DNA of 64,000 nucleotides from Candidatus Acidiferrum sp. (GCA_035317605.1 DATHGT010000258.1:18477-82476), one strand, 5' to 3'; shown: positions 3,230-26,839, numbered from the stretch's first letter. A program made the numbers and translations. The notes: generated by a model from the sequence alone, not told the origin.

Positions 3230-4175
<946 letters not shown>

Positions 4176-4182
<7 letters not shown>

Positions 4183-4868
4183 CGATCCACCTCCGTGAAT
4201 GTGTAGCCCTGACCGTGCACGGTGAGGATGAACGCGGGACGGTCGGGGTCGGTTTCGAACTTGCGGCGCAGCCGCAGGATGTGCGTGTCGACGGTTCGCG
4301 TGGTGGGAAACCGTTCGTAGCCCCACACCTCGTCGAGCAACCGCTCGCGGGTGACGACCTCGCCGCGGTGCTCGAGCAGGTAGACGAGCAGCTCGAACTC
4401 CTTGCGGGTGAGCCCGACCGGGCGCCCGGCCCTGAACGCCTGGCGTCCGCGCGGCCGCACGCGCGCGTCGCCGAAGGCGAACTCTTCCACCTTGTGGCGC
4501 GGCCCGGGCCGGCGCAGCACCGCGCGCACCCGCGCCAGCAGCTCGCGCAGCGAGAACGGCTTGGTGATGTAGTCGTCGGCGCCCAGCTCGAGCCCGCGGA
4601 CACGGTCGCTCTCCTCGCCCCGCGCGGTGAGCATGATGATCGGCACGTCGATGCCCTGGCCCCGCAGCTCGCGGCACACGTCCCACCCGCTGAGCCCCGG
4701 CATCATGATGTCGAGCAGGATGAGGTCGGGCGCCTCCCGCGCGGCCACGGTGAGCGCCTCGCGTCCGTCCATGGCCGTGGAGGTCTGGTAACCCTCGAAG
4801 CGCAGGTTGTCCTCCAGACCGCGCACGATCTCCGGCTCGTCGTCCACGATGAGGATGCGCGACATCAC
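4176..4868 (-). CDS. OmpR/PhoB-family response regulator (HprR/CusR-like)
   Basis: The receiver domain shows [10 protein letters not shown]...D...[14 protein letters not shown] winged-helix C-terminus shows ...[27 protein letters not shown]...[13 protein letters not shown]. Confidence 0.9.
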
Positions 4869-11160: not shown

Positions 11161-11201
11161 CGCCCGAAGGAGCCGAGACGCGAGGAACGGGAGGAGCGCT
11201 C

Positions 11202-13649
11202 TCAGCGGCGTGACGACCGCGCGACGTTCAGCGTGAACGTCGTCTGCCGGCCCAGGGGCTGGCCGGTCACCGTGACCGCGTACGACCCGGACGGGGTCGA
11301 GGGCGCGGTCGCGATGGTCAGCGTGGTCGAGCAGGGCGCGACGCAGAAGGCGGGAGCGAACGCGGCGGTCGCGCCCGCCGGCAGGCCCGAGACCGCGAAC
11401 GAGACGAGGGCGGACGAGGTCTCGGCGTTGCAGGCGGCGTCGATGCGGGTGGAGCCCGACGCGCCCTCGGCCAGGGTGATCGATCGTGACGGCGCCAGCG
11501 AGTAGTCGCTCGCGCCGACGACCAGCCGGGCGCTCAGAGCTCCATACCCATAGAGGTTGTTCCAGCCGTCGCCGTCGTAGACCGCCCCCCCGATCTTCCG
11601 GGTGCTGCGGCGCAGGCGGTCCCGGACGTCGGCCTCGGTGAGCGCGGGCTCCCGGCTCAGCAACAGCCCGGTGACGCCGGCGGCGAGGGCGGCGGCGGAC
11701 GAGGTGCCCCCGAAGTCCGACCGGTAGGTCGTGAGGGGACCGCTGGTCGTGGTCACGCGCACGCTGCCCCCGCTCGACGGGGCCACCAGCCACAGGCCCG
11801 TCCCCCACTGCGAGTAGTCGGACCGGGTGTCGAAGTTCGTGCTCGCTCCCACCGCGATGGCCCGCGGCTCGGAGGCGGGGAAGGCCAGCACGCCTTCCTG
11901 GAGCGGCCGGAACTGGTTGCTCTGGTTGCCGCAGATCAGCGACGACCGCGAGACGAGCGCCCCCGCCGCCGTGTAGAGCGAGAACCGGAGGCCGTCGAGG
12001 CACCGCGTCGAGTATTGATCGCCGCCGTCGAAGGTCTCGGCGGAGACCCAGAGGTTGAAGGCGAGCATCCCCGCGGGGACCGTGCGCTGGACCCGCAGGG
12101 TCGTCGACTGCGAGTCACCGATGGTGCCCGCCTTGGCCGCGCACCGTCCGCCGCGCGCGGAGGCGGCCCGCGTGGGATCGTCGACGATCCGCCAGCCGGC
12201 GGGGCCCGCGGTCGTCCAGCCGGACGGCAGACCGTGACAGGCTTCGAACGTCTCGACGGTGCCGTCGGGAAACGCCACGTTGTCGAGCCAGGCCGTGTCG
12301 AAGCCGCGACTCCCCGACTCGTTCTTGAGGTATTCCCACTCGAAGATCCACGTGCCCGCGGGGATGGTGAACCCGGTGAGGCCGTCGAGGCCGGCCGACA
12401 GGTAGCCGGACGCGGCGTTGGCGGCGGCGAAGAACACCGGGGCGCCGCGGCCGCCGCGCCCGTGGGTGGCGGCGAACTCGATGCCGCTGCTGATCACCGC
12501 GGAGGGCGTGCCGCCGCCCCAGGAGTTGCTGAGCACGTCGGCGTGGTTGGCCGCGTAGCGGAGGGCCTGGGCCGCCGCCGCGTCGCCGGCGAAGGACGAT
12601 CCGTGAAAGATCTTGACGGGCATGATGCGGCAGCGCTGGCAGGCGCCGGTCACGCCGACGCCGTCGCCGCCGCGCGCCGCCGCCACGCCGGCGGCGGCGG
12701 TGCCGTGGCTGTCGCGATCGCCGATCGGGTTGGTGTCGTTGCCGTTGCGGGCGAAGTCCCAGCCGTGAACGTCTTCCACGTACCCGTTGCCATCCCCGTC
12801 GACGTGGCTGCCCGCGGTCTCACCGGGATTCGTCCATAGATTTGGCCCCAGGTCGGGATGCGCCTGCACGACGCCGTCGTCGATGATGGCGATGACCACG
12901 TCGGGGCTGCCGGTGGTCACGTCCCACGCAGCGACCAGATCGGCGTCGGCGCCGGGCGATCCCCCGCCCTGCCCGGTGTTCTGCAGGTGCCACTGCTGGG
13001 GGAACATCGGATCGTCGGGGGCGGCGCTGCGGACGTATTCGCGAAGGAAGTTCGGGTGCGCCCACTCGACCCACGGCTCGGCGGCCAGCGCGTTGGCCAG
13101 GGCCAGCGGGTCGTCGGCCTTGGGGTCGACCAGCTCGAGGATCAGCTCATCGTCCGCTCCGATCAGAGGCCGCGCCACCCGCAGCGTTGCCGGCAGTCCC
13201 GCCGCGACGGCGGCCGGCGTCGTTCCCGCCCGCACCTTGACGACGATCTCGTTCGTGAGGAGCAGGAGCTGGCCCGACGGCGGATGCACCAGCGCCGGAT
13301 AGGCCCACGCCACCGCGGGGTCGGCCAATACGTCCTGGTGCACGACGCGAGCCGCCTGCCGTCGATCCACCGACGGGGTCACCGGTTGGATCGAGAGCAG
13401 CGTCACCGACGGAATCACCTCGGTCTCGCCGAGCGTCACGTGCGTGTGCGAGGACGACCGCGTGGCCGGGCGAGGGCCGCGCGCGTCGGGCGTCGCCGCG
13501 TAGCCGACGCTCAAGAACGCGTGGGCATGATCGAGCGGGACCGGCTGGCCCTGATGGAGATAGCTCGGTCCCTGGGCGCTCGCCGCGCCGGCGACCAGCA
13601 GCGCGGCGCAGAACGCGTGGACTCGAACGAGGGGGAGAAGCAATCGCAT
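11202..13649 (-). CDS. Secreted subtilisin-like serine protease (peptidase S8) with a C-terminal beta-sandwich extension
   Basis: The signal peptide is MRLLLPLVRVHAFCAALLVAGAASAQG (ATG 13649, M121 of ORF 11202..14009). The catalytic triad motifs are AIIDDGV (Asp), DSHGTAAAG (His) and GGTSSAAALAAGV (Ser). Confidence 0.85.
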   Translation of the reverse strand: MRLLLPLVRVHAFCAALLVAGAASAQGPSYLHQGQPVPLDHAHAFLSVGYAATPDARGPRPATRSSSHTHVTLGETEVIPSVTLLSIQPVTPSVDRRQAARVVHQDVLADPAVAWAYPALVHPPSGQLLLLTNEIVVKVRAGTTPAAVAAGLPATLRVARPLIGADDELILELVDPKADDPLALANALAAEPWVEWAHPNFLREYVRSAAPDDPMFPQQWHLQNTGQGGGSPGADADLVAAWDVTTGSPDVVIAIIDDGVVQAHPDLGPNLWTNPGETAGSHVDGDGNGYVEDVHGWDFARNGNDTNPIGDRDSHGTAAAGVAAARGGDGVGVTGACQRCRIMPVKIFHGSSFAGDAAAAQALRYAANHADVLSNSWGGGTPSAVISSGIEFAATHGRGGRGAPVFFAAANAASGYLSAGLDGLTGFTIPAGTWIFEWEYLKNESGSRGFDTAWLDNVAFPDGTVETFEACHGLPSGWTTAGPAGWRIVDDPTRAASARGGRCAAKAGTIGDSQSTTLRVQRTVPAGMLAFNLWVSAETFDGGDQYSTRCLDGLRFSLYTAAGALVSRSSLICGNQSNQFRPLQEGVLAFPASEPRAIAVGASTNFDTRSDYSQWGTGLWLVAPSSGGSVRVTTTSGPLTTYRSDFGGTSSAAALAAGVTGLLLSREPALTEADVRDRLRRSTRKIGGAVYDGDGWNNLYGYGALSARLVVGASDYSLAPSRSITLAEGASGSTRIDAACNAETSSALVSFAVSGLPAGATAAFAPAFCVAPCSTTLTIATAPSTPSGSYAVTVTGQPLGRQTTFTLNVARSSRR

Positions 13650-13650
13650 G

Positions 13651-13692
13651 CGCGATGGGGCGGAGGCCCTGAGCCTCCGCCCCGGTCGGCCG
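13651..13692 (-). terminator. GC-rich stem-loop between the SBP stop and the S8 protease start (intercistronic attenuator/terminator)
   Basis: On the - strand GGGGCGGAGGC-ucag-GGCCUCCGCCCC forms an 11-bp near-perfect stem. It sits in the 44-nt gap between the SBP TGA (13694) and the protease ATG (13649). Confidence 0.5.
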
Positions 13693-13693
13693 A

Positions 13694-15232
13694 TCAGGCG
13701 CGCCGCAACTTCAGGTTGAAGCGCCGGATCTCGAGCTGCTGGAGGGGATCCGGAGTCCATTCGACGTACTTCTGGGCGCCGTAGTCCTCGTAGGGCTGGA
13801 TGATCGGGATCCACGGCAAGTGCTCGAGGAAGATCTTGGTCATCTCGCGGTACGCGGTGTCGCGGAACTTCTCGTCGATCGAGAAGCGCGCGGCCTCGCC
13901 CAGCTCGTCGAAGCGCGGATGACGCCAGTAGTCCTGCGGACCGCCCGGAGCCAGCAGCCGCCACATCATCCCGTCCGGGTCGCCGTAGGCGGACGTGGGA
14001 TCGGACCACCAGAGGCCCTTGAAGCTCTTGTCACGGTTCTTCTGGGCGCGCACCGAATACTCCAGCACCTCGACCTTGGCGTTGACGCCGACGTCGCGCC
14101 ACATCGCCACGATGGCTTCCGACATGGGCTTGTCGTTGGCGGTGTAGCCGGAGGTCGTCTCGATCACGATCTCCTCGCCCTTGTAGTTGGCCTTCTTCAA
14201 CCGCTCACGGGCCTGCGCGGGGTTGTAGGCCAGCGGCGGCGCCGATGCGTCGAAGTGGTTGTCGCCCTTGGCGATGGGTCCGCTCGGCACGATGCCGCGC
14301 CCGCGCCACAGCTCCTTCACGATCAGATCGCGGTCGACCGCGAGGGCCAGCGCCTGCTTGACCAGTGGATTGTCGAGGGGCGGGCGCTTGCTGTTGACGG
14401 CGAGCACGTAGAGCCCGGCGTAGAGCGCGCCCATCACGCGGGTGGTCGGGTTGCCGGCCACGCGCTCGCCGTGATCGGGGGGCAGCTGGGTGATGAGGTC
14501 GACCTCGGCCTTGAGGAGCGCGGCGATGCGGGGGGCCAGGTCGGGGATGGCGCGGACGATCACCCGGTCGACGTCGATCTTGCCGCCCCAGTAGCCCGGG
14601 TTGGCGTCGAGCACGATCTTGTCGTCCTTGGTCCACGACACGAAGCGCACCGGGCCCGTGCCCACGGGCTTGGCGTTGAACTCGTCGCCGCCCACCGCCT
14701 CGAGATACTTCTTCGGCACGATCTGGCCGCCGTAGAAGGCCAGGCGCGCGGCGAGCAGCGGATCGGGCTTCTTGGTGTGCATGACCACGGTCAGCGGGTC
14801 GGGCGCCTCGATCCGATCGATGGTGGTGAAGACGGTGTTCACCCGCGTCTTCACGTTGGGATCCAACGTCCGCTCCAGGCTGTACTTCACGTCCGCCGAG
14901 GAGAACGGGTCGCCGTTGTGCCACTTGACGCCGGAGCGCAGCTTGAACGTCCACGTGGTGGCGGGCGCCAGCTTCCATTCCGTGGCCAGCCCCGGCTGGA
15001 GCTTGCCGTCGGGACGCCGGCTGATGAGGTTGTCGAAGATGTTGAACGAGATCCGGATGTCGTTCGATGACGTCGAGAAGTGGGGATCGAACTTCGAGAT
15101 GTCACCGCCCTGGGCCACGACCAGCTCCCGCTTCTGGGTCGTCTGCGCCCCGGCCGGGCGCGGAGCGAGCGCGCCGGCGACTCCGAGCGCGCCCGCGCCC
15201 TGGAGCAGCTCACGACGGGTCATCCGTGTCAT
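13694..15232 (-). CDS. ABC transporter periplasmic substrate-binding protein, family 5 (DppA/OppA-like), Tat signal
   Basis: MTRMTRRELLQGAGALGVAGALAPRPAGAQ is a twin-arginine signal. The family-5 SBP fold runs throughout. GGAGG sits 5 nt upstream of the ATG at 15232 (M24 of ORF 13694..15301). Confidence 0.85.
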   Translation of the reverse strand: MTRMTRRELLQGAGALGVAGALAPRPAGAQTTQKRELVVAQGGDISKFDPHFSTSSNDIRISFNIFDNLISRRPDGKLQPGLATEWKLAPATTWTFKLRSGVKWHNGDPFSSADVKYSLERTLDPNVKTRVNTVFTTIDRIEAPDPLTVVMHTKKPDPLLAARLAFYGGQIVPKKYLEAVGGDEFNAKPVGTGPVRFVSWTKDDKIVLDANPGYWGGKIDVDRVIVRAIPDLAPRIAALLKAEVDLITQLPPDHGERVAGNPTTRVMGALYAGLYVLAVNSKRPPLDNPLVKQALALAVDRDLIVKELWRGRGIVPSGPIAKGDNHFDASAPPLAYNPAQARERLKKANYKGEEIVIETTSGYTANDKPMSEAIVAMWRDVGVNAKVEVLEYSVRAQKNRDKSFKGLWWSDPTSAYGDPDGMMWRLLAPGGPQDYWRHPRFDELGEAARFSIDEKFRDTAYREMTKIFLEHLPWIPIIQPYEDYGAQKYVEWTPDPLQQLEIRRFNLKLRRA

Positions 15233-16826: not shown

Positions 16827-17750
16827 TCAGTGCGGGGGTTGGGGCAGCGGCAGATCGAAGGGGGCGCCCCACGTGAACGTGTGGGTCTGCCCGCTGGACG
16901 ACCGAAGCACGAACCACTCGGCCGTCGAGCCTCGCTCCACCGCGACGTCCGCTTTGCCGTCGCCGTCGAAGTCGCCGGGCACCGGGGTGTCGCCGGGAGC
17001 GCCGAAGGTGAGCGCCTGCAATCCGGTGGCGCTGCCGAAGATCAGCCACTCGCCCGTGGCCGTCCGATAGACGGCCAGATCGGTCTTGCCGTCACCGTCG
17101 AAGTCGGCGGGCACCGGAACGTCGCCGAGCCCGCTCGCGGCCGGAGCGCCGAACACTCGGGTTTGAAAGCCGGTGGCGCTGCCGAAGATGAACCACTCCC
17201 CGGTGGCCTTGCGATAGACGGCGAGATCGGCCTTGCCGTCGCCGTCGTAGTCCCCGGGCACCGGCGTGTCGCCGAGGCCAAGCGAGGCGGGAGAACCGAA
17301 GAGCAGCGTCTGAAAGCCGGTCGCCGTGCCGAACACGAACCATTCGCCGGTGGCCTTGCGATAGACGGCGAGATCGGCCTTGCCGTCGCCATCGTAGTCC
17401 GCGGGCACCGCCGTGTCGCCGAGGCCCAGCGAGGCGGGGGAGCCGAAGAGCAGCGTCCGGAAGCCGGTCGCGCTGCCGAACACGAACCATTCGCCGGTCG
17501 CTTGCCGGTAGACCGCGAGATCCGTCCGGCGATCGCCATCGAAATCGGCGGGCACCGGCGAGTCGCCGAGACCGCTGGCGGCCGGCGAGCCGAAGAGCAG
17601 CGTCTGAAAACCCGTCGCGCTGCCGAACACGAACCACTCTCCCGTGCCCGGTCGATAGACGGCCGCGTCCGTCTTGCCGTCGCCGTCGAAGTCACCGAGG
17701 ACCCGCCCGACGGCCAGGGTCGCGGTGCGGACCGTGGAGCCCCCCCCGTT
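16827..17750 (-). repeat. ~0.9-kb FG-GAP-module DNA repeat, copy 1 (3' end of protease 1)
   Basis: This copy is ~85-93% nucleotide-identical to 20203..21110 and 23887..24790. The same alternative-frame ORFs recur: 17092..17637, 20441..21028 and 24167..24712 all read MVRVRQRDRLSD.... Confidence 0.7.
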
Positions 17751-19640
17751 CGTGGTGTTGGTGAACGCCAGCGTGGAGGGACCATAGGTGCCGAGGGCGA
17801 GGCCGTTGGCGGTGGCGTTCACGGTGAAGGTCACCGTCGTGGCCGACGTGGTCGCCGTGCCCGACATCGGCGAGGCGGTCAACCAGCTCGGCACCCCGGA
17901 GATGGCAAAGTTCACCGCGCCCGTCGTCGTGCTGAGCTGGAACTGGAACGACGACGGCGAGAAGGGTCCCCCCTTCTTCCCGGAGGAGAGGACGTTGCCG
18001 GCCGGCGTGACCTGCAAGGTGGGCACGAGCACGTTGACGGACAGGATCGCGGTCCGGGTGGTGTTGCCCAGACCGTTGGTGGTGTTGGTGAACGTGATGG
18101 TGGTCGGGCCGTAGACGCCGGGGGCGAGCGCGTTCGCGCCGGCGTTCACCGTGAAGGTGACCGTGGTCGCCGACGTCGTCGCGGTGCCCGAGGTGGCCGA
18201 GGCGGTCAGCCAGCTCGGCACCCCGGAAATCGAAAAGTTCACCGACCCGCTCGTCGCGCTCAGCTGATACGCGAACGAGGACGGCGAGAACGGCCCGCCC
18301 TGGAGGCCCGAAGCCGCGAGGTTGGTGGCCGGCGTCACCGAAAGGGCCGACGGTCCGCTCACCGTGATCGTGCTGCGTATCTCGGCGGCCGCGACGCCGC
18401 GCTCGACGATCACCTTCGCGGTGAAGGTGCCGGCGGAGGCGTAGACGTGGGGGGCGTTCTGCGAGGTGGCCACGACCGCGTTGAACTTCGCGCCGATGAC
18501 CGGGTTGGTCGGATCGCCGCAGGCCGCCGTCACCGCGCTCACGCTGGTCCCGGAGTTCGAGCAGTTCCACCAGAACGTGTAGTTGATCGTTCCCACCGCC
18601 GTGCCCCCGACCTGGGCGGTCAGCGTGGTGCTCAGCGGGCTGGGGCCGCTGGCAGGATTGGGCGTCAACGAGGCCGACAGCGACAGCACCGTCCATCCGA
18701 TGTCCTGAAACAGCGCGAGCTCCAGGCTCGGATCGAGCGGCACCGTGTAGATCGGCTCCATGATCTGATCGGGCGAGAGCGCGGTGTCCCAGTGCGACAC
18801 CGAGGAGCCGGGCTGCTGGGGACTCGGGGCGAACATCCGGACGTGGTCGCCCACCTTGCCCGCCGAGAGGATGCCACTGGCGGCCCGAACCTGAGCGCCG
18901 ACCCAGTGCAGGTTGCCGCTATTCGTGCTCGCGGCGACGCGCTGGGCGTTGGTCATGCTCGGATAGTCGGCCGGGCTGGCCCCGTGGCTTTCCAGGTTCA
19001 GCATGAACGTGTCGTTCAGGCCCAGGGCCTTGGCGCCGGTGGTCAGGTCGACGAGGGTGAGAAAGCCCAGCCCGTGGCCCAGCTCGTGGAGGAGGACCGT
19101 GACGAAGTCGATGTTGGCGCCCGCGTTGCCGTCGAGCCCGTAGTACCAGCTTCTCGGGAACGCGCAGGTCGTCCCGATCGCGCTGTTGAATTGCGCGTTG
19201 ATGTCGGCGGCGCCGTCGAGGTCGGTTCCATGGAGCGCGTTGGCGAGCGGGCTCGGATACCAGGTGGACCCCAGGGGGGCGCCGCTGAAATCGCGAAAGG
19301 CGGTGTTGGGGCCGGCGGACCCGAGGATCGCGGAGCTGGCGTTGCACGCCAACGGATCGAACGTGGCGTTGACCCGGATGGTCACCGCGCTGAACAGGAG
19401 CGCGCCCCAGACGTCCGCGGCGTGCTGGAAGGCGATCAGTCGCTGCGCGCCGAGCGTCACTCCGAGGTTACCACCTATGGGAGCCACGGGGGTCGCATCG
19501 TTGAACCCCTCGCCGGGGCCGTCGTTGTTGATCACCGTGATGACCGCGGCGTGCGCGAGGGGAGACGCGACGGTCGCCAGCCCGACGAGCGACGCGAGCG
19601 CGACGACGACGCTGAACCCCCTCCGGCGGCGCCTCACCAT
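16827..19640 (-). CDS. Secreted zinc metalloprotease (HEXXH: VLLHELGHGLGFL) + 2 Ig-like domains + C-terminal FG-GAP repeat beta-propeller (protease cassette 1)
   Basis: The signal peptide is MVRRRRRGFSVVVALASLVGLATVASPLAHA (ATG 19640). HELGHGLGF is the zinc-binding HEXXH motif. There are two ~100-aa tandem Ig-like repeats (...SGVPSWLTAS...TVTFTVNA...). Six or seven ~50-aa FG-GAP/VCBS repeats follow (GDFDGDGKTDLAVYR...GEWFVFGSATGF...LFG). Confidence 0.8.
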   Translation of the reverse strand: MVRRRRRGFSVVVALASLVGLATVASPLAHAAVITVINNDGPGEGFNDATPVAPIGGNLGVTLGAQRLIAFQHAADVWGALLFSAVTIRVNATFDPLACNASSAILGSAGPNTAFRDFSGAPLGSTWYPSPLANALHGTDLDGAADINAQFNSAIGTTCAFPRSWYYGLDGNAGANIDFVTVLLHELGHGLGFLTLVDLTTGAKALGLNDTFMLNLESHGASPADYPSMTNAQRVAASTNSGNLHWVGAQVRAASGILSAGKVGDHVRMFAPSPQQPGSSVSHWDTALSPDQIMEPIYTVPLDPSLELALFQDIGWTVLSLSASLTPNPASGPSPLSTTLTAQVGGTAVGTINYTFWWNCSNSGTSVSAVTAACGDPTNPVIGAKFNAVVATSQNAPHVYASAGTFTAKVIVERGVAAAEIRSTITVSGPSALSVTPATNLAASGLQGGPFSPSSFAYQLSATSGSVNFSISGVPSWLTASATSGTATTSATTVTFTVNAGANALAPGVYGPTTITFTNTTNGLGNTTRTAILSVNVLVPTLQVTPAGNVLSSGKKGGPFSPSSFQFQLSTTTGAVNFAISGVPSWLTASPMSGTATTSATTVTFTVNATANGLALGTYGPSTLAFTNTTNGGGSTVRTATLAVGRVLGDFDGDGKTDAAVYRPGTGEWFVFGSATGFQTLLFGSPAASGLGDSPVPADFDGDRRTDLAVYRQATGEWFVFGSATGFRTLLFGSPASLGLGDTAVPADYDGDGKADLAVYRKATGEWFVFGTATGFQTLLFGSPASLGLGDTPVPGDYDGDGKADLAVYRKATGEWFIFGSATGFQTRVFGAPAASGLGDVPVPADFDGDGKTDLAVYRTATGEWLIFGSATGLQALTFGAPGDTPVPGDFDGDGKADVAVERGSTAEWFVLRSSSGQTHTFTWGAPFDLPLPQPPH

Positions 19641-19668
19641 CGCCGCCTCGCCCCGTGGCGCCGAATCG

Positions 19669-20073
19669 TCATGGCTTGTCGGCAACGGGACGCGTCTCGT
19701 CGAGATGCTGCATCTTGACCTTTCCGCCGGCATCGATGGTGACGATCAGCGGGTTCTGGAAGCGCCCCTGGAGATCGAGCTTGACCCCGCCACCGGCGAC
19801 GGAGCTCGGCGTCTCGACCAACCCTTGATGCGAGGTGCTCAGCGAATTGGCGAGCTGCGGGCTCAGCTGAAGCGGCACGGTGCCCGGCGCCGGCTCCTCG
19901 AGAATCGCTCCGGTCTGGGGATCGACGTAGATCACCATGCCCGGTGCGCCTTGCGCGGCCGCGACGGGCGGGCTGTCTCCGGCGAACACGGGCGGGGCCA
20001 CCACGGCGAAGCTGCCGAGGACCACGAGCAGGCCCAAGAACAATCCCTGAGGACGCGCGCGCTTCTCCTTCAT
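19669..20073 (-). CDS. Small secreted protein (134 aa) encoded immediately upstream of protease 1; paralog at 26002..26385
   Basis: The signal peptide is MKEKRARPQGLFLGLLVVLGSFAVVAPPVFA. The SD is GAAGGAGG 9 nt upstream. The mature region (MVIYVDPQTGAILEEPAPGTVPLQLSPQL...LIVTIDAGGKVKMQHL) is ~85% identical to the 26002..26385 product. The stop lies 28 nt before the protease start. Confidence 0.6.
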   Translation of the reverse strand: MKEKRARPQGLFLGLLVVLGSFAVVAPPVFAGDSPPVAAAQGAPGMVIYVDPQTGAILEEPAPGTVPLQLSPQLANSLSTSHQGLVETPSSVAGGGVKLDLQGRFQNPLIVTIDAGGKVKMQHLDETRPVADKP

Positions 20074-20202
20074 CGGGCCGTGCCTCCTTCTACAGACTCA
20101 GCCCTTCGAAGCTACCCCACCGGCACCGCGAATCGAGAACAAATACCTCGCGTTGTCGAAGATGGCCGAGGAGTGCGAAAGAGCGTCGGCCTCGCCGGTC
20201 GG

Positions 20203-21110
20203 TCAGTGCGCGGGTTGCGGCACCGGCAGGTCGGAGGGCGCGCCCCACACGGACGTTTGGGTCTGGCCCGTGGACGATTGCAGCACGAACCACTCGCCGG
20301 TCGCGTTCCGTCGCACGGCGAAGTCCGCCTGGCCATCGCCGTCGTAGTCCCCCTGCACCGGGGTGTCATTGAGACCGCTCGAGGCGGGAGAGCCGAACAG
20401 GCGGGTCTGAAAGCCGGTGGCGCTGCCGAAGACAAGCCACTCACCCGTGGCCTTCCGATAGATGGCCAGATCCGCCTTGCCGTCGTGGTCGTAGTCGGCA
20501 GGGACCGGAATGTCGCCGAGCCCGCTCACGGCGGGAGCGCCGAACAGCAGGGTCCGAAACCCGGTGGCGCTGCCGAAGATGAACCATTCCCCGGCGGCCT
20601 GGCGGTAGACGGCGAGGTCCGCGATGCCGTCGCCGTCGTAGTCCGCGGGAACCGGAATGTCGCCGAGCCCACTGGAGGCCGGAGCGCCGAACAGCAGCGT
20701 CCGAAAGCCGGTCGCGCTCCCGAAGACGAACCACTCGCCGGTGGCCTTCCGGTACACGGCCAGATCCGCCTTGCCGTCGCCGTCGAAGTCGGCGGGCACC
20801 GCGGTGTCGCCGAGACCACTGGCGGATGGAGCGCCGAACAGCAAGGTCTGAAAGCCGGTCGCGCTGCCGAAGACGAACCACTCGCCGGTCGCTTGCCGGT
20901 AGACCGCGAGGTCCGTCTTGCGGTCGCCGTCGAAGTCGGCGGGCACCGGCGCGTCGCCGAGGCCGCTCGAAGCGGGAGATCCGAACAGGAGCGTCTGAAA
21001 CCCGGTGGCGCTGCCGAACACGAACCACTCGCCCGTGGTCGGTCGATAGACGGCCAGGTCTTTCTTGCCGTCGCCGTCGAAGTCACCTCCGACGCCGTGC
21101 GGGGAGTTCG
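20203..21110 (-). repeat. FG-GAP-module DNA repeat, copy 2 (3' end of M4 protease)
   Basis: The gene 3' ends are almost identical (ctcagtgcgcgggttgcggcaccggcaggtcggagggcgcgcccc at both 20203 and 23887). Confidence 0.7.
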
Positions 21111-23343
21111 CGACACACCGGTAGAGACGGATATCGTCAATGAACCAGCCATAATCGTCGACGCTGGAGTCGGTTCCCATCCGGAAGCGGAACCGGACGT
21201 TCTGCCCGGCCAAGCTCGTCAGGTTCAATTGTGAGGCGGTGTACCCGAAGCTGTGCTTGACGAAGGCGCTGCGCCCTCCGAGCAGGTTGGAGAAACTCGA
21301 ACTGATGGTGCCGCCGTACGTCGCGCCGGCGGTGATCAAACTTCCCGCGTCGGACCAGCTCGCACCGCCGTTGGTGCTGTACTCGATCACACCGCCGTCG
21401 TAGTTGGCGGTCGCGCCGTTTTCGAAGCCGTACGCGTGATTGAACTGTAACCGCGCGCCGCCGGCGGGGATGGCCACGCTGCTCGTCATCGCGATGGCAG
21501 AATCGGCAATCGTCGGTCGGTCGTAGCCGAAAAAGTTTCGTACGCCGCTGGTGGCGAACACGGAGTCGGCGGGAGGCGGGTAGAACCAGTGAGGCGTGCC
21601 CGTCGCCGTGGTGATCGTCCAGTTGCCGGCGGCCGTGTTCTCCAGGTTGTCGAAGAAGAGAGTGGCCGGAACCTGGCCCGCCGGGCAAAAGGCGGGGACC
21701 GCGGCCTGAGGCGGCGAGCATGGCCAGGCGTTGGCCATCTGCACCGCATCGAGCGCCCGACCCACCTGGGTACAATCGCCGGACGTGATCGACGCCGTTC
21801 CGATCAGGTCGTTGCAGGCGCGCTTGAGGGCGTCGTAGTTGTCCAGGAAATCCGACCCCGACAGCAGATAATTCGTCAGGGCGCGGTACTGGATCTTCGC
21901 GGCCTTGGTCAGCCCGATCCCCGTGATGGTGAACCCGTTGTACGTCCCGCCGTCCACCATGAGGGCATAGGCGTGGTTGGGAACGCCGCTGTTGGTGTGG
22001 ACACCACCGGCATCGCCGCCCGGCATCGCACAGGCGAACTGCGAGGTGTCGCTCAGCTTGCCGGGATCGCCGAACGCATTCGGGTTCATCATGTTTCGAA
22101 ACGCCCCGATTCCGGGGACATCCTCGCCGATCAGCCAGCGGACCGCCGCCGTGTCCGTGCCCGCGCCGTTCGTGAGGTCGATCGTTTCCCCGAAGATGTC
22201 GGAATAGGACTCGTTCAGGGCGCCGGACTGCATGTAGTAGAAGAGGTTGGCCGAGTGCTCGGTGACGGCGTGGGTCAGCTCGTGGGCGTCGACGTCGTCT
22301 GCCCTGGAGAACCCGTTTCCGTACACCATCTGCGTGCCGTTCCAGAAGGCATTCTCGTAGTTGCAGCCGTTGTCGGTCGGACAGTAGTGCACGGTCGAAA
22401 GCAGCATGGCCCCGGCGCCGTCGTAGCTGTCTCGACCGTGTTGTGTGAAAAAGTAGTTGTAGGTGTCCCCGGAAAAATTATAGGCGGCGTTGACGTCGGC
22501 GTCTCCGGTCGGCCCCTGCCCCTCGGAGCGCACCAGAGTGCCCGGCAGGATACTTCCGCCGTTCGCGGTATAGATCCTGCGGTTCAGGGCATCGGTGAGC
22601 TGGCTGAAGTCCAACAACCGAACTCCGGTCCCGGCGTCGATCCACATGAACTGGCGCAGGTCGATTCGGCTCGCCTCGACGAACCAGGCCAGGCGAGTGG
22701 GCGCCTGGATGCCGTCGAGCATGGGACGGCTGAACACTTCGAGCCGCGGCGGGCCGAAGACCGCGCCCACGACGCCGAAGTGCTTCACCACGAGCGCCTC
22801 GGCCCGGGCCAAGGCCTCGGCGTCGCTGATCGTGGGCGAGGTGACGATCTTCTCGGTGACGTCGAGCGTCTTGGCGTTGACGGCGACGACACCGGCGCCG
22901 ATGAGGTGAACCGTCAGTTCGCCCGCGGTGACGGGCACGCCTCCATGGAGCTGCCGGAACCGCACGTGCTCCATGCCCACTTCGTCAGGACCACTCGTCT
23001 TCGCATGCGCGAGATCCGCCACGTCGGCAATCCCGAACGCCCGGCCGTACGACGACACGAACGCTCGCGCTCGCGCTTCCGCCGGGGCGCTCGCGGAAAC
23101 GGCCAGCGGGATCGGCCCCCCGGACACCGACAGGAACGTCAAGAGACCGTTCACGCGGGACCGGGTCGTTTCGAGAGGCGCCGCCGCCGCGAGCTCCATG
23201 CGCTGCACCTCCGACGTGACGAGATCGGCGGCGGCGCGAGCGAGACCCCCGGCGCAGAGGCTCAAGGTTATAGAAAGAATGATAGTGCCAAGGATATTCG
23301 CTCGCGGCGGCAGTCGGCAGGAGCACGCGTTGGTCTCGGTCAT
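20203..23343 (-). CDS. Secreted M4 (thermolysin-like) zinc metalloprotease with FTP/PepSY-type propeptide and C-terminal FG-GAP repeat beta-propeller (protease cassette 2)
   Basis: The M4 signature is VDAHELTHAVTEHSANLFYYMQSGALNESYSDIFGE (HEXXH + ExxxD). The N-terminal signal is MTETNACS...ILGTIILSITLSLCAGGLARA (ATG 23343, AGGAAGAAAG upstream). The last ~300 aa are FG-GAP repeats nearly identical to cassettes 1 and 3. Confidence 0.85.
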   Translation of the reverse strand: MTETNACSCRLPPRANILGTIILSITLSLCAGGLARAAADLVTSEVQRMELAAAAPLETTRSRVNGLLTFLSVSGGPIPLAVSASAPAEARARAFVSSYGRAFGIADVADLAHAKTSGPDEVGMEHVRFRQLHGGVPVTAGELTVHLIGAGVVAVNAKTLDVTEKIVTSPTISDAEALARAEALVVKHFGVVGAVFGPPRLEVFSRPMLDGIQAPTRLAWFVEASRIDLRQFMWIDAGTGVRLLDFSQLTDALNRRIYTANGGSILPGTLVRSEGQGPTGDADVNAAYNFSGDTYNYFFTQHGRDSYDGAGAMLLSTVHYCPTDNGCNYENAFWNGTQMVYGNGFSRADDVDAHELTHAVTEHSANLFYYMQSGALNESYSDIFGETIDLTNGAGTDTAAVRWLIGEDVPGIGAFRNMMNPNAFGDPGKLSDTSQFACAMPGGDAGGVHTNSGVPNHAYALMVDGGTYNGFTITGIGLTKAAKIQYRALTNYLLSGSDFLDNYDALKRACNDLIGTASITSGDCTQVGRALDAVQMANAWPCSPPQAAVPAFCPAGQVPATLFFDNLENTAAGNWTITTATGTPHWFYPPPADSVFATSGVRNFFGYDRPTIADSAIAMTSSVAIPAGGARLQFNHAYGFENGATANYDGGVIEYSTNGGASWSDAGSLITAGATYGGTISSSFSNLLGGRSAFVKHSFGYTASQLNLTSLAGQNVRFRFRMGTDSSVDDYGWFIDDIRLYRCVANSPHGVGGDFDGDGKKDLAVYRPTTGEWFVFGSATGFQTLLFGSPASSGLGDAPVPADFDGDRKTDLAVYRQATGEWFVFGSATGFQTLLFGAPSASGLGDTAVPADFDGDGKADLAVYRKATGEWFVFGSATGFRTLLFGAPASSGLGDIPVPADYDGDGIADLAVYRQAAGEWFIFGSATGFRTLLFGAPAVSGLGDIPVPADYDHDGKADLAIYRKATGEWLVFGSATGFQTRLFGSPASSGLNDTPVQGDYDGDGQADFAVRRNATGEWFVLQSSTGQTQTSVWGAPSDLPVPQPAH

Positions 23344-23389
23344 TGCTTGACTTTCTTCCTTGCAGTTCGTGGCCGCCGGAAAACTACTG

Positions 23390-23842
23390 TCAATCCAGAT
23401 CCGAGTCAAGCGTAGGAGTCAGTTCCTCGATCTCCGTGATCTCGACGACGCGTTCCGTGGCCGGTGGGCACGGCGGGCGGATACATCGCGCTCGAGGGTT
23501 CCTCTCATCCGCGTAGCGATAGCGGACACGCACGGTCTTCCCCACGAAGGAACCGAGGTCGAATGCCGCCGTGTTCTGCACGTAGATCTGGTGAACACCT
23601 TCACAGCGGACGGTCAAGACGTAGCGATCACCGAGGCGGTCGATCGAGGCCGGACCGTGAATCTCGTACACCCCGTCGAGCCGGCGTTCGCAGGCGGTCG
23701 GCAGCAGGATCTGGGGCTCACCGAACGCGGGTGTCGTCCCCAGCGGTGAGAGGTTGTGTGTCGCCGACGGGCCGACGTGCCCAGGTCCAACAACCGCCAC
23801 GACGATCGCGGCCGCCGCACACCGACTCCGAGCCGTGCTCAA
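23390..23842 (-). CDS. Small secreted Cys-containing protein (~150 aa) immediately upstream of the M4 protease
   Basis: The C-terminal 150 codons of ORF 23390..24124 begin at TTG 23842 with a signal-like region STARSRCAAAAIVVAVVGPGHVGPSA. The product has 4 Cys (ACERRLDGVYEIHG...TVRCEGVHQIYV...ARCIRPPCPP). Upstream residues of the listed ORF are a shadow of the pseudogene end. No strong SD, so the start is uncertain. Confidence 0.4.
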   Translation of the reverse strand: MSTARSRCAAAAIVVAVVGPGHVGPSATHNLSPLGTTPAFGEPQILLPTACERRLDGVYEIHGPASIDRLGDRYVLTVRCEGVHQIYVQNTAAFDLGSFVGKTVRVRYRYADERNPRARCIRPPCPPATERVVEITEIEELTPTLDSDLD

Positions 23843-23886
23843 GGGTTGATCATGAACCGTCGACAGGTCCACGAAGGTGCCGGTTG

Positions 23887-24790
23887 TCAGTGCGCGGGTT
23901 GCGGCACCGGCAGGTCGGAGGGCGCGCCCCAGACGGACGTCTGCGTCTGCCCGGTCGACGATTGCAGCACGAACCACTCGCCGGTCGTGTTCCGTCGCAC
24001 GGCGAGGTCCGCCGGGCCGTCGCCGTCGTAGTCCCCCTGCACCGGGGTGTCGTTCAGACCGCTCGAGGCCGGAGAGCCGAACAGTCGGGTCTGAAAGCCG
24101 GTAGCGCTGCCGAAGACGAGCCACTCGCCGGTGGCCCTGCGATAGATGGCGAGGTCCGCCTTACCGTCACGGTCGAAGTCGGCAGGCACCGGAATGTCGC
24201 CGAGGCCGCTCGCGGCGGGGGCGCCGAACAGGAGGGTCCGAAAGCCGGTGGCGGTGCCGAAGATGAACCATTCGCCGGTGGCCTGGCGATACACAGCCAG
24301 ATCCGCTTTGCCATCGCCGTCGTAGTCCGCGGGCACGGGAATGTCGCCGAGGCCACTCGAGGCCGGAGCACCGAACAGGAGGGTCCGAAACCCGGTCGCG
24401 GTGCCGAACACGAACCATTCGCCGGTGGCCTTCCGGTACACGGCCAGATCCGCCTTGCCGTCGCCGTCGAAGTCGGCGGGCACCGCGGTGTCGCCGAGAC
24501 CACTGGCGGATGGAGCGCCGAACAGCAAGGTCTGAAACCCGGTCGCGCTGCCGAAGACGAACCACTCGCCGGTGGCTTGCCGGTAGACCGCGAGATCGGT
24601 CTTGCGGTCGCCGTCGAAGTCGGCGGGCACCGGCGCGTCGCCGAAACCGCTCGAAGCCGGAGATCCGAACAGCAGGGTCTGAAAGCCGGTGGCGCTCCCG
24701 AACACGAACCACTCCCCCGTGGCCGATCGATAGACGGCCAGATCTTTCTTACCGTCACCGTCGAAGTCACCCAAGACAGCTCGGACGTTC
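23887..24790 (-). repeat. FG-GAP-module DNA repeat, copy 3 (3' end of the disrupted protease)
   Basis: See copies 1 and 2. Confidence 0.7.
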
Positions 24791-25973
24791 AGGGTCGCGG
24801 TCCGGGTCGTGTTGCCCTGGCCGTTCGTGGTGTTGGTGAACGTGATCGTGGTGCCATAGAGGCCGGGCGCGAGAGCGTTCGCGCCGGCGTTCACCGTGAA
24901 GGTGATCGTCGTCCCTGTCGTCGTCACCGTGCCCGAGGTCGCCGACGCGGTCAGCCAGCTCGGCAGGCCGGAGATCGAAAAGTTCACCGACCCGCTCGTC
25001 GCGCTCAGCTGATACGCAACCGCCGACGGCGAGAATGGCGCGCCATGGCTCCCGGCCACGCTGACGTTGGCGGCCGGCGTGACCTGGAGCGTCAACAGCG
25101 CCAGCGGCCAGCCGATGTCCTGGAAGAGCGAAAGTTCCAGGCCTGGCCCGCTGAGGGGGACCGTGTAGCTCGGCTCCATGAGCTGGTTGGGAGTCAGCGC
25201 GGTGTCCCAGTGCGACACCGAAGAGCCGGGTTGCTGGGGATTCGGAGCGAACATCCGGACGTGGTCACCCACCCTTCCCGCCGTCAGAGCGCCGCTGGCC
25301 GCCCTCACCTGAGCCCCGACCCAGTGCAGGTTCCCGGTGTTCGTGCTCGCGGCGACCCGCTGGGCATTGGTCATGCTCGGAAAGTCGGCCGGGCTGGCCC
25401 CGTGGTTTTCGAGGTTGATCATGAACGTGTCGTTCCGGCTGAACATCTTCGCGCCCGTGGCCAGGTCGACGAAGGTCAGAAAGCCCAGTCCGTGGCCCAG
25501 CTCGTGGAGAAGGACCGTCACGAAATCGATATCGCCGCCGGCGTTGCCGTCGAGCCCGTAGTACCAGCTCCTCGGAAACGCGCACGTGGTCCCGACCGCG
25601 CTGTTGAATTGCGCGTCGATGTCGGCGGCCGTGGGGTCGAGGTCACTGCCGTGCAGCGCATTGGCCAGCGCGATCGGATACCAGGTGGCAGGCAGAAGAG
25701 CCCCGCTGAAGTCGCGGAAGGAGCTGGAGGGGCCAGCGGAGCCGAGCACCGCCGAGCTGGCGTTGCAGGCCAGAGCATCGAACGTGGCGTTGACCCGGAT
25801 CGTCACCGCGGTGTTGAGAACCGCGCCCCAGATGTCCGCAACCCCTCGCCGGCGCCGTCGTTGTTGATCACCGTGACGGTCGCCGCCTGCGCGATCGGAG
25901 ACGCGACAGCGACCATCCCCAAGAACGACGCCAGCAGGACGATCATGCCCGACCGGGCCCGACGGAGTCCCAT
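23887..25973 (-). pseudogene. Frameshifted copy of the cassette-1-type HEXXH metalloprotease (protease cassette 3), disrupted by an 85-bp deletion near codon 50
   Basis: The N-terminus MGLRRARSGMIVLLASFLGMVAVASPIAQAATVTVINNDGAGEGL (ATG ~25973) matches cassette 1. Relative to cassette 1 (19480..19565) an 85-bp segment is missing after ...CCCCAGATGTCCGC. The frame shifts to a TGA overlapping the GTG at 25806, from which ORF 23887..25806 (VTIRVNATFDALACNASS...HELGHGLGF...FG-GAP) continues without a signal peptide. Confidence 0.6.
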
Positions 25974-26001
25974 CCCCACCTCGCTGCGTGGTGCCGAACC
26001 G

Positions 26002-26385
26002 TTAGGGTTTGTCGGCGACGCCGGGCGTCTCGCCGAGGTGGTGCATCTTGACCTTTCCGTCGGCGTCGATCGTCACGATCAGCGGGTTCTGGAAACGGCC
26101 CTGGAGATCGACCTTGACTCCTCCACCGGGCACGGAGCTCGGCGTCTCGACCAACCCCTGATGCGAGGTGCTCAGCGAGTTGGTGAGCTGCGGACTCAGC
26201 TGAAGCGGCACGGTGCCCGGCGCCGGCTCCTTGAGAATCGCCCCCGTCTGGGGGTCGACGTGGATCACCATGCCCGGCGCGCCTCCGGGAACCGCCGCCG
26301 GCTGGCTTTCTCCGGAGAACACCGGCGCGGCCGCCAGGGCGAAGCCGCCGAGCGCCACGAGCAGGACGATCAGGAAGGTGCGCAT
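26002..26385 (-). CDS. Small secreted protein (127 aa), paralog of 19669..20073, upstream of the disrupted protease 3
   Basis: The signal peptide is MRTFLIVLLVALGGFALAAAPVFSG. AAGGAG sits 9 nt upstream of ATG 26385 (M33 of ORF 26002..26481). Confidence 0.6.
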   Translation of the reverse strand: MRTFLIVLLVALGGFALAAAPVFSGESQPAAVPGGAPGMVIHVDPQTGAILKEPAPGTVPLQLSPQLTNSLSTSHQGLVETPSSVPGGGVKVDLQGRFQNPLIVTIDADGKVKMHHLGETPGVADKP

Positions 26386-26554
26386 GCGAGACGTCTCCTT
26401 CAGGGCGGTGATCACCACACCGATCGTTCGTTCAGCCACGCTTGGAACCTTACTCCAGAATCCAACGTGAAGTGCCAGCAATCATGCCCGCCAGTGTGAA
26501 TCAGTTTGCCCACGAGACCTACAATGGCGCGGGCGAGCGCGAGGCCGACGCGGC

Positions 26555-26839
26555 TCAGGCGATCGTGAACGCGCGGGCGGCGAATTCGGCGAACCGGTTC
26601 TCGAGGTCGGCGGCGACCGCGTCGGCCACCTCGCGCGCGGTGCCCGCGCGATCCTGGGGCTCGCCGTGGGTCCACGAGTCGAGGTACTCGTCGGAGCCGT
26701 GGAGCCCGCGCTGCATGGCGACCGAGTCGATCAACATCTGGAAGCGCTCGGACAGCTCGACGGTCGCGCTGTCGGGACCGTCCTGAGCCTCGACGCCGGC
26801 GGGAATGCCCTTCCAGGCGATCACGCGATAGGTCGCCAT
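26555..26839 (-). CDS. Hypothetical small acidic protein (~94 aa) downstream of the MoaD-like gene
   Basis: MATYRVIAWKGIPAGVEAQDG... (ATG 26839, M10 of ORF 26555..26866). No family recognised. Co-directional with acs and moaD-like. Confidence 0.45.
   Translation of the reverse strand: MATYRVIAWKGIPAGVEAQDGPDSATVELSERFQMLIDSVAMQRGLHGSDEYLDSWTHGEPQDRAGTAREVADAVAADLENRFAEFAARAFTIA

Follow-up and report, generated by a model that had tools for sequence, protein, structure and literature searches.

Peptidase M4, the thermolysin family, is defined by an HEXXH zinc motif and the glutamate ligand of a downstream NExxSD motif. Members of the metalloprotease family NF038122 probably end in a PEP-CTERM signal as a rule, as the name of the partner family also suggests. 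Duplicated bacterial genes, such as the tuf genes and the rRNA operons, undergo concerted evolution by gene conversion. Repetitive VCBS propellers have a median of six blades, with counts that vary around the family median (PMC8023676, PMC9218822). In the umbrella-toxin system, lectin domains are diversified and exchanged among proteins (PMC13274773). Gene conversion is not discussed in the two VCBS propeller papers (PMC8023676, PMC9218822; 0 occurrences in PMC9218822).

The locus described here is predicted from its sequence to be an array of Sec-secreted zinc metalloproteases, with predicted activity, that end in one common C-terminal module. The host of the three neighbouring secreted metalloprotease genes is an uncultured soil bacterium. 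In the window, which is the whole 64-kb stretch of DNA that was analysed, the array lies on the minus strand in the order small ORF-B, g3, small spacer ORF, g2, small ORF-A and g1. Genes for a peptide-binding protein, permeases and an S8 protease stand beside it. The features are as follows.

26002..26385, minus strand: small ORF-B, secreted, 127 aa, post-PEP-CTERM-1 type; first gene of cassette B
23887..25973, minus strand: g3, LGF-type metalloprotease with one BACON-like domain and a propeller tail; frameshifted in the window
23887..24771, minus strand: g3 propeller tail, six 49-aa FG-GAP/VCBS blades with a DxDxDG loop in each
23390..23830, minus strand: small spacer ORF between g3 and g2, conserved; start position uncertain
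20203..23343, minus strand: g2, M4 thermolysin-like metalloprotease with FTP propeptide, catalytic domains, MAM-like domain and propeller tail
20203..21087, minus strand: g2 propeller tail, six blades; compared with the g3 tail for identity and modelled with AlphaFold2
19669..20073, minus strand: small ORF-A, 134 aa, post-PEP-CTERM-1 type; first gene of cassette A
16827..19640, minus strand: g1, LGF-type metalloprotease with an extra domain of ~120 aa, two BACON-like domains and a propeller tail
16827..17696, minus strand: g1 propeller tail with six blades, of which blade 5 is 5 aa shorter
17264..17410, minus strand: single 147-nt g1 blade, present in the window and missing from the near-identical ENA contig L001

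The initial annotation had assigned a shared FG-GAP tail of ~0.9 kb to the three protease genes, and a homologous module of ~885 nt, built from six units of 147 nt (49 aa) each, is indeed present in all three. Its estimate of 85-93% nucleotide identity holds for g2 and g3 (91.9%, with 72 differing sites) but is slightly generous for g1 (83.3% to g2 and 82.6% to g3). The reported identity of 20203..20245 to 23887..23929 was reproduced, and the identical run extends to 45 nt. Three occurrences of 885 nt at 83-92% identity are beyond chance. The stretch over which g2 and g3 are homologous opens with the first codon of blade 1 and runs to one base beyond the stop codon, and the blade units hold their positional order and orthology between genes. 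No extra tail copy was found elsewhere in the 64-kb window.

What kind of domain is the tail? With Pfam gathering scores as cut-offs, the three tails match PF01839 at 81-88 bits (cut-off 22.1) and PF13517 at 73-88 bits (cut-off 26.9). Every 49-aa unit of the three tails contains one copy of the motif D[FY]DGDG(K/R)xD, allowing for minor variants such as DGDR, DHDG and DRDG, and the aspartate positions of the loop are at least 90% conserved among 75 homologues. In the AlphaFold2 model of the g2 tail (pLDDT 96.7, pTM 0.92), 24 strands form six blades of four. In the PDB, this model best matches the lectin propeller of UmbA4, which has six blades and binds teichuronic acid (Foldseek E = 3.9e-9, TM 0.71, 23% identity), and next fungal GlcNAc lectins. 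The tail is thus modelled as a six-bladed FG-GAP/VCBS beta-propeller with a calcium-type DxDxDG loop in each blade. It is under purifying selection (omega ~0.07), with a dS of 0.31 between the g2 and g3 tails. Blades inside one tail differ from each other by a dS of 0.66-0.81 and so did not arise by the recent amplification of a single blade. The alternative-frame ORFs noted earlier at 17092, 20441 and 24167 are present and correspond to the +1 frame of the tails. In these ORFs, G+C content peaks at codon position 1 (0.84-0.88) and reaches its minimum at position 3 (0.54-0.55), and the protease frame of the tails carries a G+C content of 0.84-0.87 at position 3. These ORFs were therefore rejected as genes and are by-products of repeated high-GC DNA.

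The catalytic heads are distributed as originally described, with an M4 domain in g2 and a HELGHGLGF protease in g1 and g3. The g2 protein exceeds the cut-offs of PF01447 (76.9 bits; 22.4), PF02868 (114 bits; 24.4) and the FTP propeptide profile PF07504 (29.4 bits; 21), and its translation contains the AHELTHAV and GALNESYSDIF motifs. Its MAM-like domain scores 20.6 bits against PF20773, under the cut-off of 26.9. From Met 23199 onward, g2 is identical to HMH52589.1, which is filed at NCBI as 'M4 family metallopeptidase [Candidatus Acidoferrum sp.]'. In the LGF head, H158, E159, H162, G165 and F166 are invariant among 54 homologues. The g1 protein matches positions 101-274 of the 274-position NF038122 profile at 61.6 bits (E = 1.2e-16) and misses the curated cut-off of 80; g1 and g3 are related to NF038122 but cannot be filed as members under NCBI's rule. 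Pfam contains no model of the LGF protease family, and no relative with a solved structure was detected. The two catalytic domains had been called unrelated, which is correct by family, and no sequence or fold similarity was detected between the M4 and LGF heads; however, both are HEXXH zinc proteases.

Each LGF protease gene is preceded by a small ORF that exceeds the NF047450 cut-off of 28 bits (small ORF-B 36.7 bits, small ORF-A 33.3 bits). The two small proteins share 77% amino acid identity, and g1 and g3 were shown to be old paralogs at the level of the whole cassette, which comprises a small ORF and an LGF protease. The N-terminus of small ORF-B is signal-peptide-like, and a Shine-Dalgarno-like AAGGAGA lies upstream of the gene; the exact small ORF-A protein is also found on ENA contig ERZ27268012 k141_62674. 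The pairing of an LGF protease with a small protein occurs at 38 of 79 genome loci, in many phyla. The translation of the spacer ORF is conserved in the window, in L001, in the related population L081 (156 aa) and in L082 (114 aa).

How did two otherwise dissimilar genes come to share nearly the same tail? The initial annotation proposed recent recombination or gene conversion. We compared the window with L081 in a quartet test on the informative sites of the g2 and g3 tails and of the LGF heads. In the tails, 67 sites group the sequences by genome, 5 by orthology and 2 in the third way, whereas 47 sites of the LGF catalytic heads follow orthology, 4 the genome and 1 the third way (Fisher p = 2e-23 for the contrast). 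This opposition of tails to heads indicates that the tail was copied between g2 and g3. The longest identical tract between the two tails spans 119 nt (permutation P = 0.0018) and is the only such tract, and the number of differences does not vary significantly from blade to blade (chi-square p = 0.10). In blade 6, the g3 gene of the window carries the M4-type sequence common to g2 of all three populations, and g3 of the related population retains the type found in g1; this site pattern points to copying from g2 to g3 in the window lineage. Thus, we consider it probable that the g2 and g3 tails have been copied non-reciprocally and independently in each lineage, over a segment bounded exactly by the module.

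The proposed conversion is borne out for g2 and g3 but not for g1, whose tail shows no sign of exchange with those of g2 or g3: it lies at a dS of 0.46-0.62 from every other tail and is roughly equidistant from the tails of the related population. Nor does the word 'recent' fit a pair with a dS of 0.31 and one 119-nt tract. Between the populations, orthologous heads of g2 and g3 differ by a dS of 0.154-0.156 and orthologous tails by 0.44-0.46. Given that the paralogous tails within one genome are more diverged at synonymous sites than the orthologous heads, either the copying is older, in which case it would precede the apparent population split and the heads would have been homogenised later by gene flow, or tails gain synonymous change faster than heads. 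As for the mechanism, the two tails are direct repeats separated by 3.7 kb, and RecA-type gene conversion between them could account for the copying; conversion tracts would be unable to run past the homologous module.

A doubtful alternative is a third donor: in each genome, some other tail-bearing gene at a different place would have supplied the sequence that replaced both tails. The tail type does occur on other genes, such as a fourth tail-bearing gene upstream in L081, and in two proteins (P0001 and P0003) a non-protease head is joined to a tail of 71-74% identity. Furthermore, the quartet has 67 sites on its internal branch, more than the 22-33 on the terminal ones. However, the 64-kb window holds no closer donor, and blade 6 points to a direct transfer from g2 to g3.

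Parallel selection on both tails for one lineage-specific ligand, with no transfer of DNA, is very improbable. Such convergence would accord with the 49 of the 67 by-genome sites that alter an amino acid and with the diversification of lectin propellers alongside their targets (PMC13274773). It does not explain the 18 by-genome sites in codons with an unchanged amino acid or the 28 third positions, set against a total of 5 orthology sites, and synonymous-site grouping by genome is seen here on a small scale. Neither would it produce a 119-nt perfect tract or a common segment that stops at the module boundaries. Parallel selection could contribute to the amino-acid-changing by-genome sites.

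We also give little credence to an assembly artefact, in which repeat collapse or chimerism creates the tail similarity or the number of tail-bearing genes. The contigs are short-read metagenome assemblies of the MEGAHIT type (k119-k141), and their blade numbers disagree. g1 has six blades in the window and five in the near-identical L001, where one unit is an R3/R4 hybrid with its junction inside 44 nt that blades 3 and 4 have in common; orthologous g1 genes have five or six blades across assemblies, and orthologous g2 genes have five or three between near-identical assemblies. The earlier warning of short-read collapse therefore proved apt for single blades. In g3 of the window, a deletion of 85 nt between 25840 and 25839 also shifts the reading frame; L001 retains this segment, and its g3 product is an intact protein of 723 aa. 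However, the array recurs in two assemblies of one and the same population at 99.9% identity and is syntenic in two related populations, including L081; four further contigs show the synteny without cassette B. The 72 differences separate the two tails, and their longest common run falls short of k = 141. In addition, the five-blade g2 variant came out identical in the assemblies of two different samples, and the MAG locus L024 carries an analogous array of tail-sharing genes. The three-gene array itself is not an assembly artefact. The repeats had also been proposed to mediate the deletion or duplication of whole cassettes. Cassette number does vary, with 2, 3 or 4 tail-bearing genes per locus among relatives, but only one such difference (small ORF-B plus g3) was open to mapping, and its breakpoints lie outside the tails, with no repeat at them.

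A single ancient fusion of the tail to each head followed by vertical descent and no exchange, with the 92% identity reflecting the fusion date and constraint, agrees with the retained positional orthology of the six blades, the low omega and a g2-g3 dS far from zero, but it predicts tails grouped by orthology and is scarcely tenable against their 67:5 grouping by genome beside orthologous heads.

The tail type is found on >6,400 proteins with many different heads. Of the 120 best homologues of the LGF head, ~24 bear FG-GAP tails, and many other tail types occur in this set; of the 120 best M4-MAM homologues, only 6 bear an FG-GAP tail. The M4 homologues of g2 carry a wide variety of C-terminal modules, and the closest ones (69-72% identity) have no FG-GAP domain. 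The tail, the M4 head and the LGF head each pair with many other partners, and module sharing and conversion are known phenomena.

What would a common tail do for different proteases? The loop motif and the structural neighbours (PMC13274773, PMC9218822) suggest calcium and carbohydrate (or protein) binding, and the propeller may act as a calcium-dependent, lectin-like targeting domain. Such a domain would hold different proteases on one glycan-bearing surface or substrate, purifying selection and conversion would keep the targeting identical across them, and the protease products could feed the adjacent oligopeptide uptake genes. A bolder reading, in which a fast-evolving receptor-recognition lectin is kept alike across proteases by conversion and the LGF protease and its small protein form a new protease-partner system, strikes us as speculative and rather unlikely. 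If it were true, a new glycan specificity arising in one gene would spread to its neighbour and retarget several proteases together, in parallel to the diversified lectins of umbrella toxins but in a proteolytic system for feeding or antagonism, and the small secreted protein might be, for example, an inhibitor or chaperone of the structurally unassigned LGF protease.

The locus also bears on how such genes are read. Because the blades are old (dS ~0.7) and copying runs between genes, high similarity in repetitive propellers need not reflect recent blade amplification. Without long reads, short-read metagenome assemblies of such genes cannot be trusted for blade number or even reading frame. 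The LGF protease and its small partner gene constitute a widespread, uncharacterised family without a solved structure.

The propeller resembles the C-terminal lectin of UmbA4 from the Streptomyces umbrella toxin (PDB 9oee; PMC13274773) in its six degenerate-repeat blades, its calcium-type loops and its position C-terminal to a protease-fold head. However, the UmbA heads are trypsin-like and belong to an UmbA/B/C toxin particle, whereas those described here are zinc metalloproteases with an intact HEXXH motif, and no Umb partners were seen at this locus. The tails share the DxDxDG cation motif and an occurrence in bacterial secreted proteins with repetitive VCBS/FG-GAP propellers (PMC8023676, PMC9218822), but here the identity is striking between genes and not between blades. 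The g1 and g3 proteins resemble NF038122 ('metallo_LGF', NCBIfam) in their HELGHGLGF heads and NF047450-passing small upstream ORFs, and differ in their sub-threshold score and in a C-terminus that is a propeller instead of a PEP-CTERM signal. Like other secreted M4 proteases, g2 combines an FTP propeptide, PF01447 and PF02868 domains, HEXXH and NExxSD motifs and C-terminal accessory domains, although an FG-GAP propeller is a minority partner in the M4-MAM subgroup. As in the concerted evolution of tuf genes and rRNA operons, paralogues within a genome are closer than orthologues, and the flanks behave as orthologous. Unlike in those systems, homogenisation is incomplete (92%), and the segment that appears to be converted is a domain of two otherwise non-homologous genes. 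The locus would therefore offer a clean natural case, of use in teaching and in the study of how accessory modules spread and stay uniform in secreted enzyme arsenals, in which one domain evolves in concert across two non-homologous genes and the rest of each gene behaves as an ordinary orthologue.

The three secreted metalloprotease genes of the window (G+C content, 69%) lie in a minus-strand array that was read from codon-position G+C bias and translations. Its members are as follows.

26385-26002, minus strand: small ORF-B
25973-23887, minus strand: g3, a HELGHGLGF-type (LGF) protease gene
about 23830-23390, minus strand: conserved small spacer ORF between g3 and g2
23343-20203, minus strand: g2, a thermolysin-family (M4) protease gene
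20073-19669, minus strand: small ORF-A
19640-16827, minus strand: g1, an LGF protease gene

A peptide-binding protein, permeases and an S8 protease adjoin the array. The spacer ORF directly upstream of the M4 gene is kept in the window and in three related contigs, namely L001 (a near-identical ENA contig), L081 (the O population) and L082 (one of the contigs of a third population, P); it encodes 156 residues in L081, where it overlaps the g3 stop by 4 nt, and 114 residues in L082. A promoter and terminator scan yielded nothing exceeding the shuffled expectation.

The catalytic heads belong to two protease types. g2 is an M4 protease, with an FTP propeptide, PF01447 and PF02868 each scoring above cut-off and with HELTH and NESYSD motifs; a MAM-like domain is suggested by a sub-cut-off match to PF20773 (20.6 versus 26.9 bits). 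From Met 23199 onward, the g2 product coincides exactly with NCBI HMH52589.1, an M4 peptidase by annotation, from a third-party MAG named 'Candidatus Acidoferrum sp.'; exact look-ups of the 937-residue g1 protein and of protein P0241 matched no contig. The heads of g1 (18690-19640) and g3 (25105-25973) contain the HELGHGLGF motif and have no match in a Pfam search, and g1 reaches 61.6 bits against NCBIfam NF038122 ('metallo_LGF'; E = 1.2e-16), short of the cut-off of 80. This head family lacks a Pfam model and is large, with more than 3,200 matches and 300 stretches in genomes from many phyla. The one scan of genome contigs turned up nothing closely related, with 72% identity for the best LGF head. 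The AlphaFold2 model of the head is confident (pLDDT 93) and has no significant fold match in the PDB (best, MMP-12, E = 0.23); the invariant residues H158, E159, H162, H192, H218, H239 and H256 are candidate metal ligands. Both small ORF-A and small ORF-B pass the cut-off of NF047450 ('post-PEP-CTERM-1'), and in 38 of 79 genome loci, from various phyla, the LGF protease gene is directly preceded by one for a small secreted NF047450 protein (L002-L079). The pair is a conserved two-gene module in which the small protein may be an inhibitor, a chaperone or a trans-acting pro-domain.

Each protease ends in an FG-GAP/VCBS propeller tail of 870-885 nt that consists of six 147-nt units. The initial annotation had described near-identical 3' tails on the three genes, and this is confirmed at DNA identities of 91.9% for g2-g3, 83.3% for g1-g2 and 82.6% for g1-g3. 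The identical terminal stretch that it reported (20203..20245 and 23887..23929) is real and 45 nt long, and the recurring alternative-frame ORFs exist as the +1 frame of the tails, with a non-coding codon-position composition. Each unit most closely matches its positional counterpart in another gene, and thus the six-unit module was copied whole. The g2-g3 homology runs from the first codon of blade 1 to one base past the stop codon; that of g1 and g3 extends upstream across the whole cassette to the small ORF. The tails score far above the Pfam cut-offs for FG-GAP and FG-GAP_3, carry a D-x-D-x-D-G loop in every unit and are modeled by AlphaFold2 (75 homologues, pLDDT 96.7) as six four-stranded blades. 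The closest solved structure is a six-bladed, teichuronic-acid-binding lectin propeller from the umbrella-toxin protein UmbA4 (PMC13274773), followed by fungal GlcNAc-binding propeller lectins. Propellers of the VCBS type are described as serving mostly in carbohydrate recognition, and the repetitive ones as having a median of six blades (PMC9218822). We infer a calcium-dependent, lectin-like targeting role for the tail.

How did an M4 protease and an LGF protease come to share this tail? Syntenic contigs of related populations, reached through the 90% protein cluster of g2, allowed a quartet comparison of the g2 and g3 tails from the window and L081. Informative sites group the tails by genome at 67 positions, by orthology at 5 and in the third way at 2, with terminal branches of 22-33 sites, whereas a control quartet of the paralogous LGF heads of g1 and g3 gives 47 sites by orthology, 4 by genome and 1 other (Fisher p = 2e-23 for tails versus heads). 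The amino acid is unchanged in the codons of 18 of the 67 by-genome sites. Because the tails group by genome and the heads by orthology, the g2 and g3 tails have been copied between genes, with independent copying in each lineage and with heads that evolved as ordinary orthologues. In blade 6, the g3 tail of the window has the sequence type common to g2 in all populations and that of L081 retains the g1 type, which gives the copying a direction. An identical g2-g3 tract of 119 nt (P = 0.0018) may mark a later patch. The recent recombination or gene conversion proposed in the initial annotation is therefore upheld as a real exchange of tails, but one that is not very recent and is confined to g2 and g3. 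The g1 tail is about equally distant from all other tails, with no exchange visible, and g1 and g3, which differ by dS 0.44-0.51 in their heads and 0.56 in their tails, look like products of an old whole-cassette duplication.

The age of the copying is less simply read. Between the g2 and g3 tails, dS is 0.31 in the window (omega 0.07) and likewise 0.31 within L081; between the window and L081, orthologous heads differ by dS 0.154-0.156 and orthologous tails by 0.44-0.46. The within-genome tail dS thus exceeds the between-population head dS. Blade-to-blade homogenization within a tail is ruled out as the source of this excess because the pooled blade dS is 0.66-0.81 in both populations. Either the copying is older than the apparent split, with the heads later homogenized by gene flow, or synonymous change is faster in the tails.

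Relatives carry two, three or four tail-bearing genes. Cassette B (small ORF-B plus g3; about 23832-26557 in the window) is absent from four P-population contigs (site 8790-8846 in L082). Deletion of this cassette through the tails is rejected because both its breakpoints, at about 26558 and 23834, fall outside the tails and have no direct repeat; nothing indicates that the repeats brought about cassette gain or loss. A 31-nt similarity (71%) between 16667 and 23834 is possibly due to chance. L081 has a fourth tail-bearing gene, with a BACON domain (L081 3-1520), upstream of a Virulence_fact ORF. The S8 peptidase (window 11197-13590; ORF 11202-14009, minus strand) is encoded between the peptide-binding protein and permease genes in the window and L001 and is missing from the corresponding site in L082; this difference adds a second insertion or deletion of a protease gene to the array neighborhood.

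Blade number varies among assemblies. L001 and the window are 99.9% identical across 20.4 kb, with 17 mismatches. L001 g1 has one blade fewer, and a hybrid of blades 3 and 4, with the crossover in a 44-nt identical stretch, forms its junction unit. In the P population, two contigs from different samples give g2 five blades and two others give it three, and g1 has five or six. Six is the largest count seen and is consistent with the closed model; the shorter tails are either unequal-crossover variants or assembler shortcuts. The window g3 lacks 85 nt at 25839/25840 that L001 carries (locus positions 4150-4234), a deletion that frameshifts the gene past its signal peptide and has no flanking microhomology; L001 g3 is intact, at 723 residues. 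The deletion may represent either a genuine pseudogene allele or a mistake in assembly. Of the 17 mismatches, three are located in the g2 tail (885 nt): L001 has the g3 base at 20492, and the window has it at 20500 and 20710. These could reflect micro-conversion, strain mixture or assembly cross-talk between paralogs. The warning of the initial annotation about short-read assemblies holds at the level of blades, where the repeats make assembly unreliable. The complete array, by contrast, is no artifact: it recurs in independent assemblies, and every run shared by the tails is shorter than k = 141, the largest k-mer named in the contigs.

Heads of many kinds bear the tail type, which is present in more than 6,400 proteins. 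Among the 120 best homologues of the M4-MAM head, only 6 have FG-GAP domains and the closest (69-72% identity) have none, and about 24 of the best 120 matches of the LGF head have FG-GAP tails, alongside many other modules. Two near-identical metagenome proteins from JGI and ENA (P0001 and P0003) join a non-protease head to a tail that is 71-74% identical to those of the window and ends in PLPQPPH, sharing the terminal PQPPH with them, with six blades in P0001 versus five in P0003. A MAG labelled uncultured delta proteobacterium contains an analogous array (L024, 9815-20846) of five consecutive stretches with their own 46-residue-unit version of the tail. Its three open genes differ in their heads (an LGF protease, a glucose/sorbosone dehydrogenase and one further head), some copies are frameshifted, and every tail that runs to its end closes with the conserved PVLPQVTILRAxGLL. 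This array and the varied partners in databases indicate that module sharing of this kind is common. Secreted enzymes with modular FG-GAP/VCBS tails are already well known, as is concerted evolution through gene conversion, and the g2-g3 tail pair is a well-resolved case.
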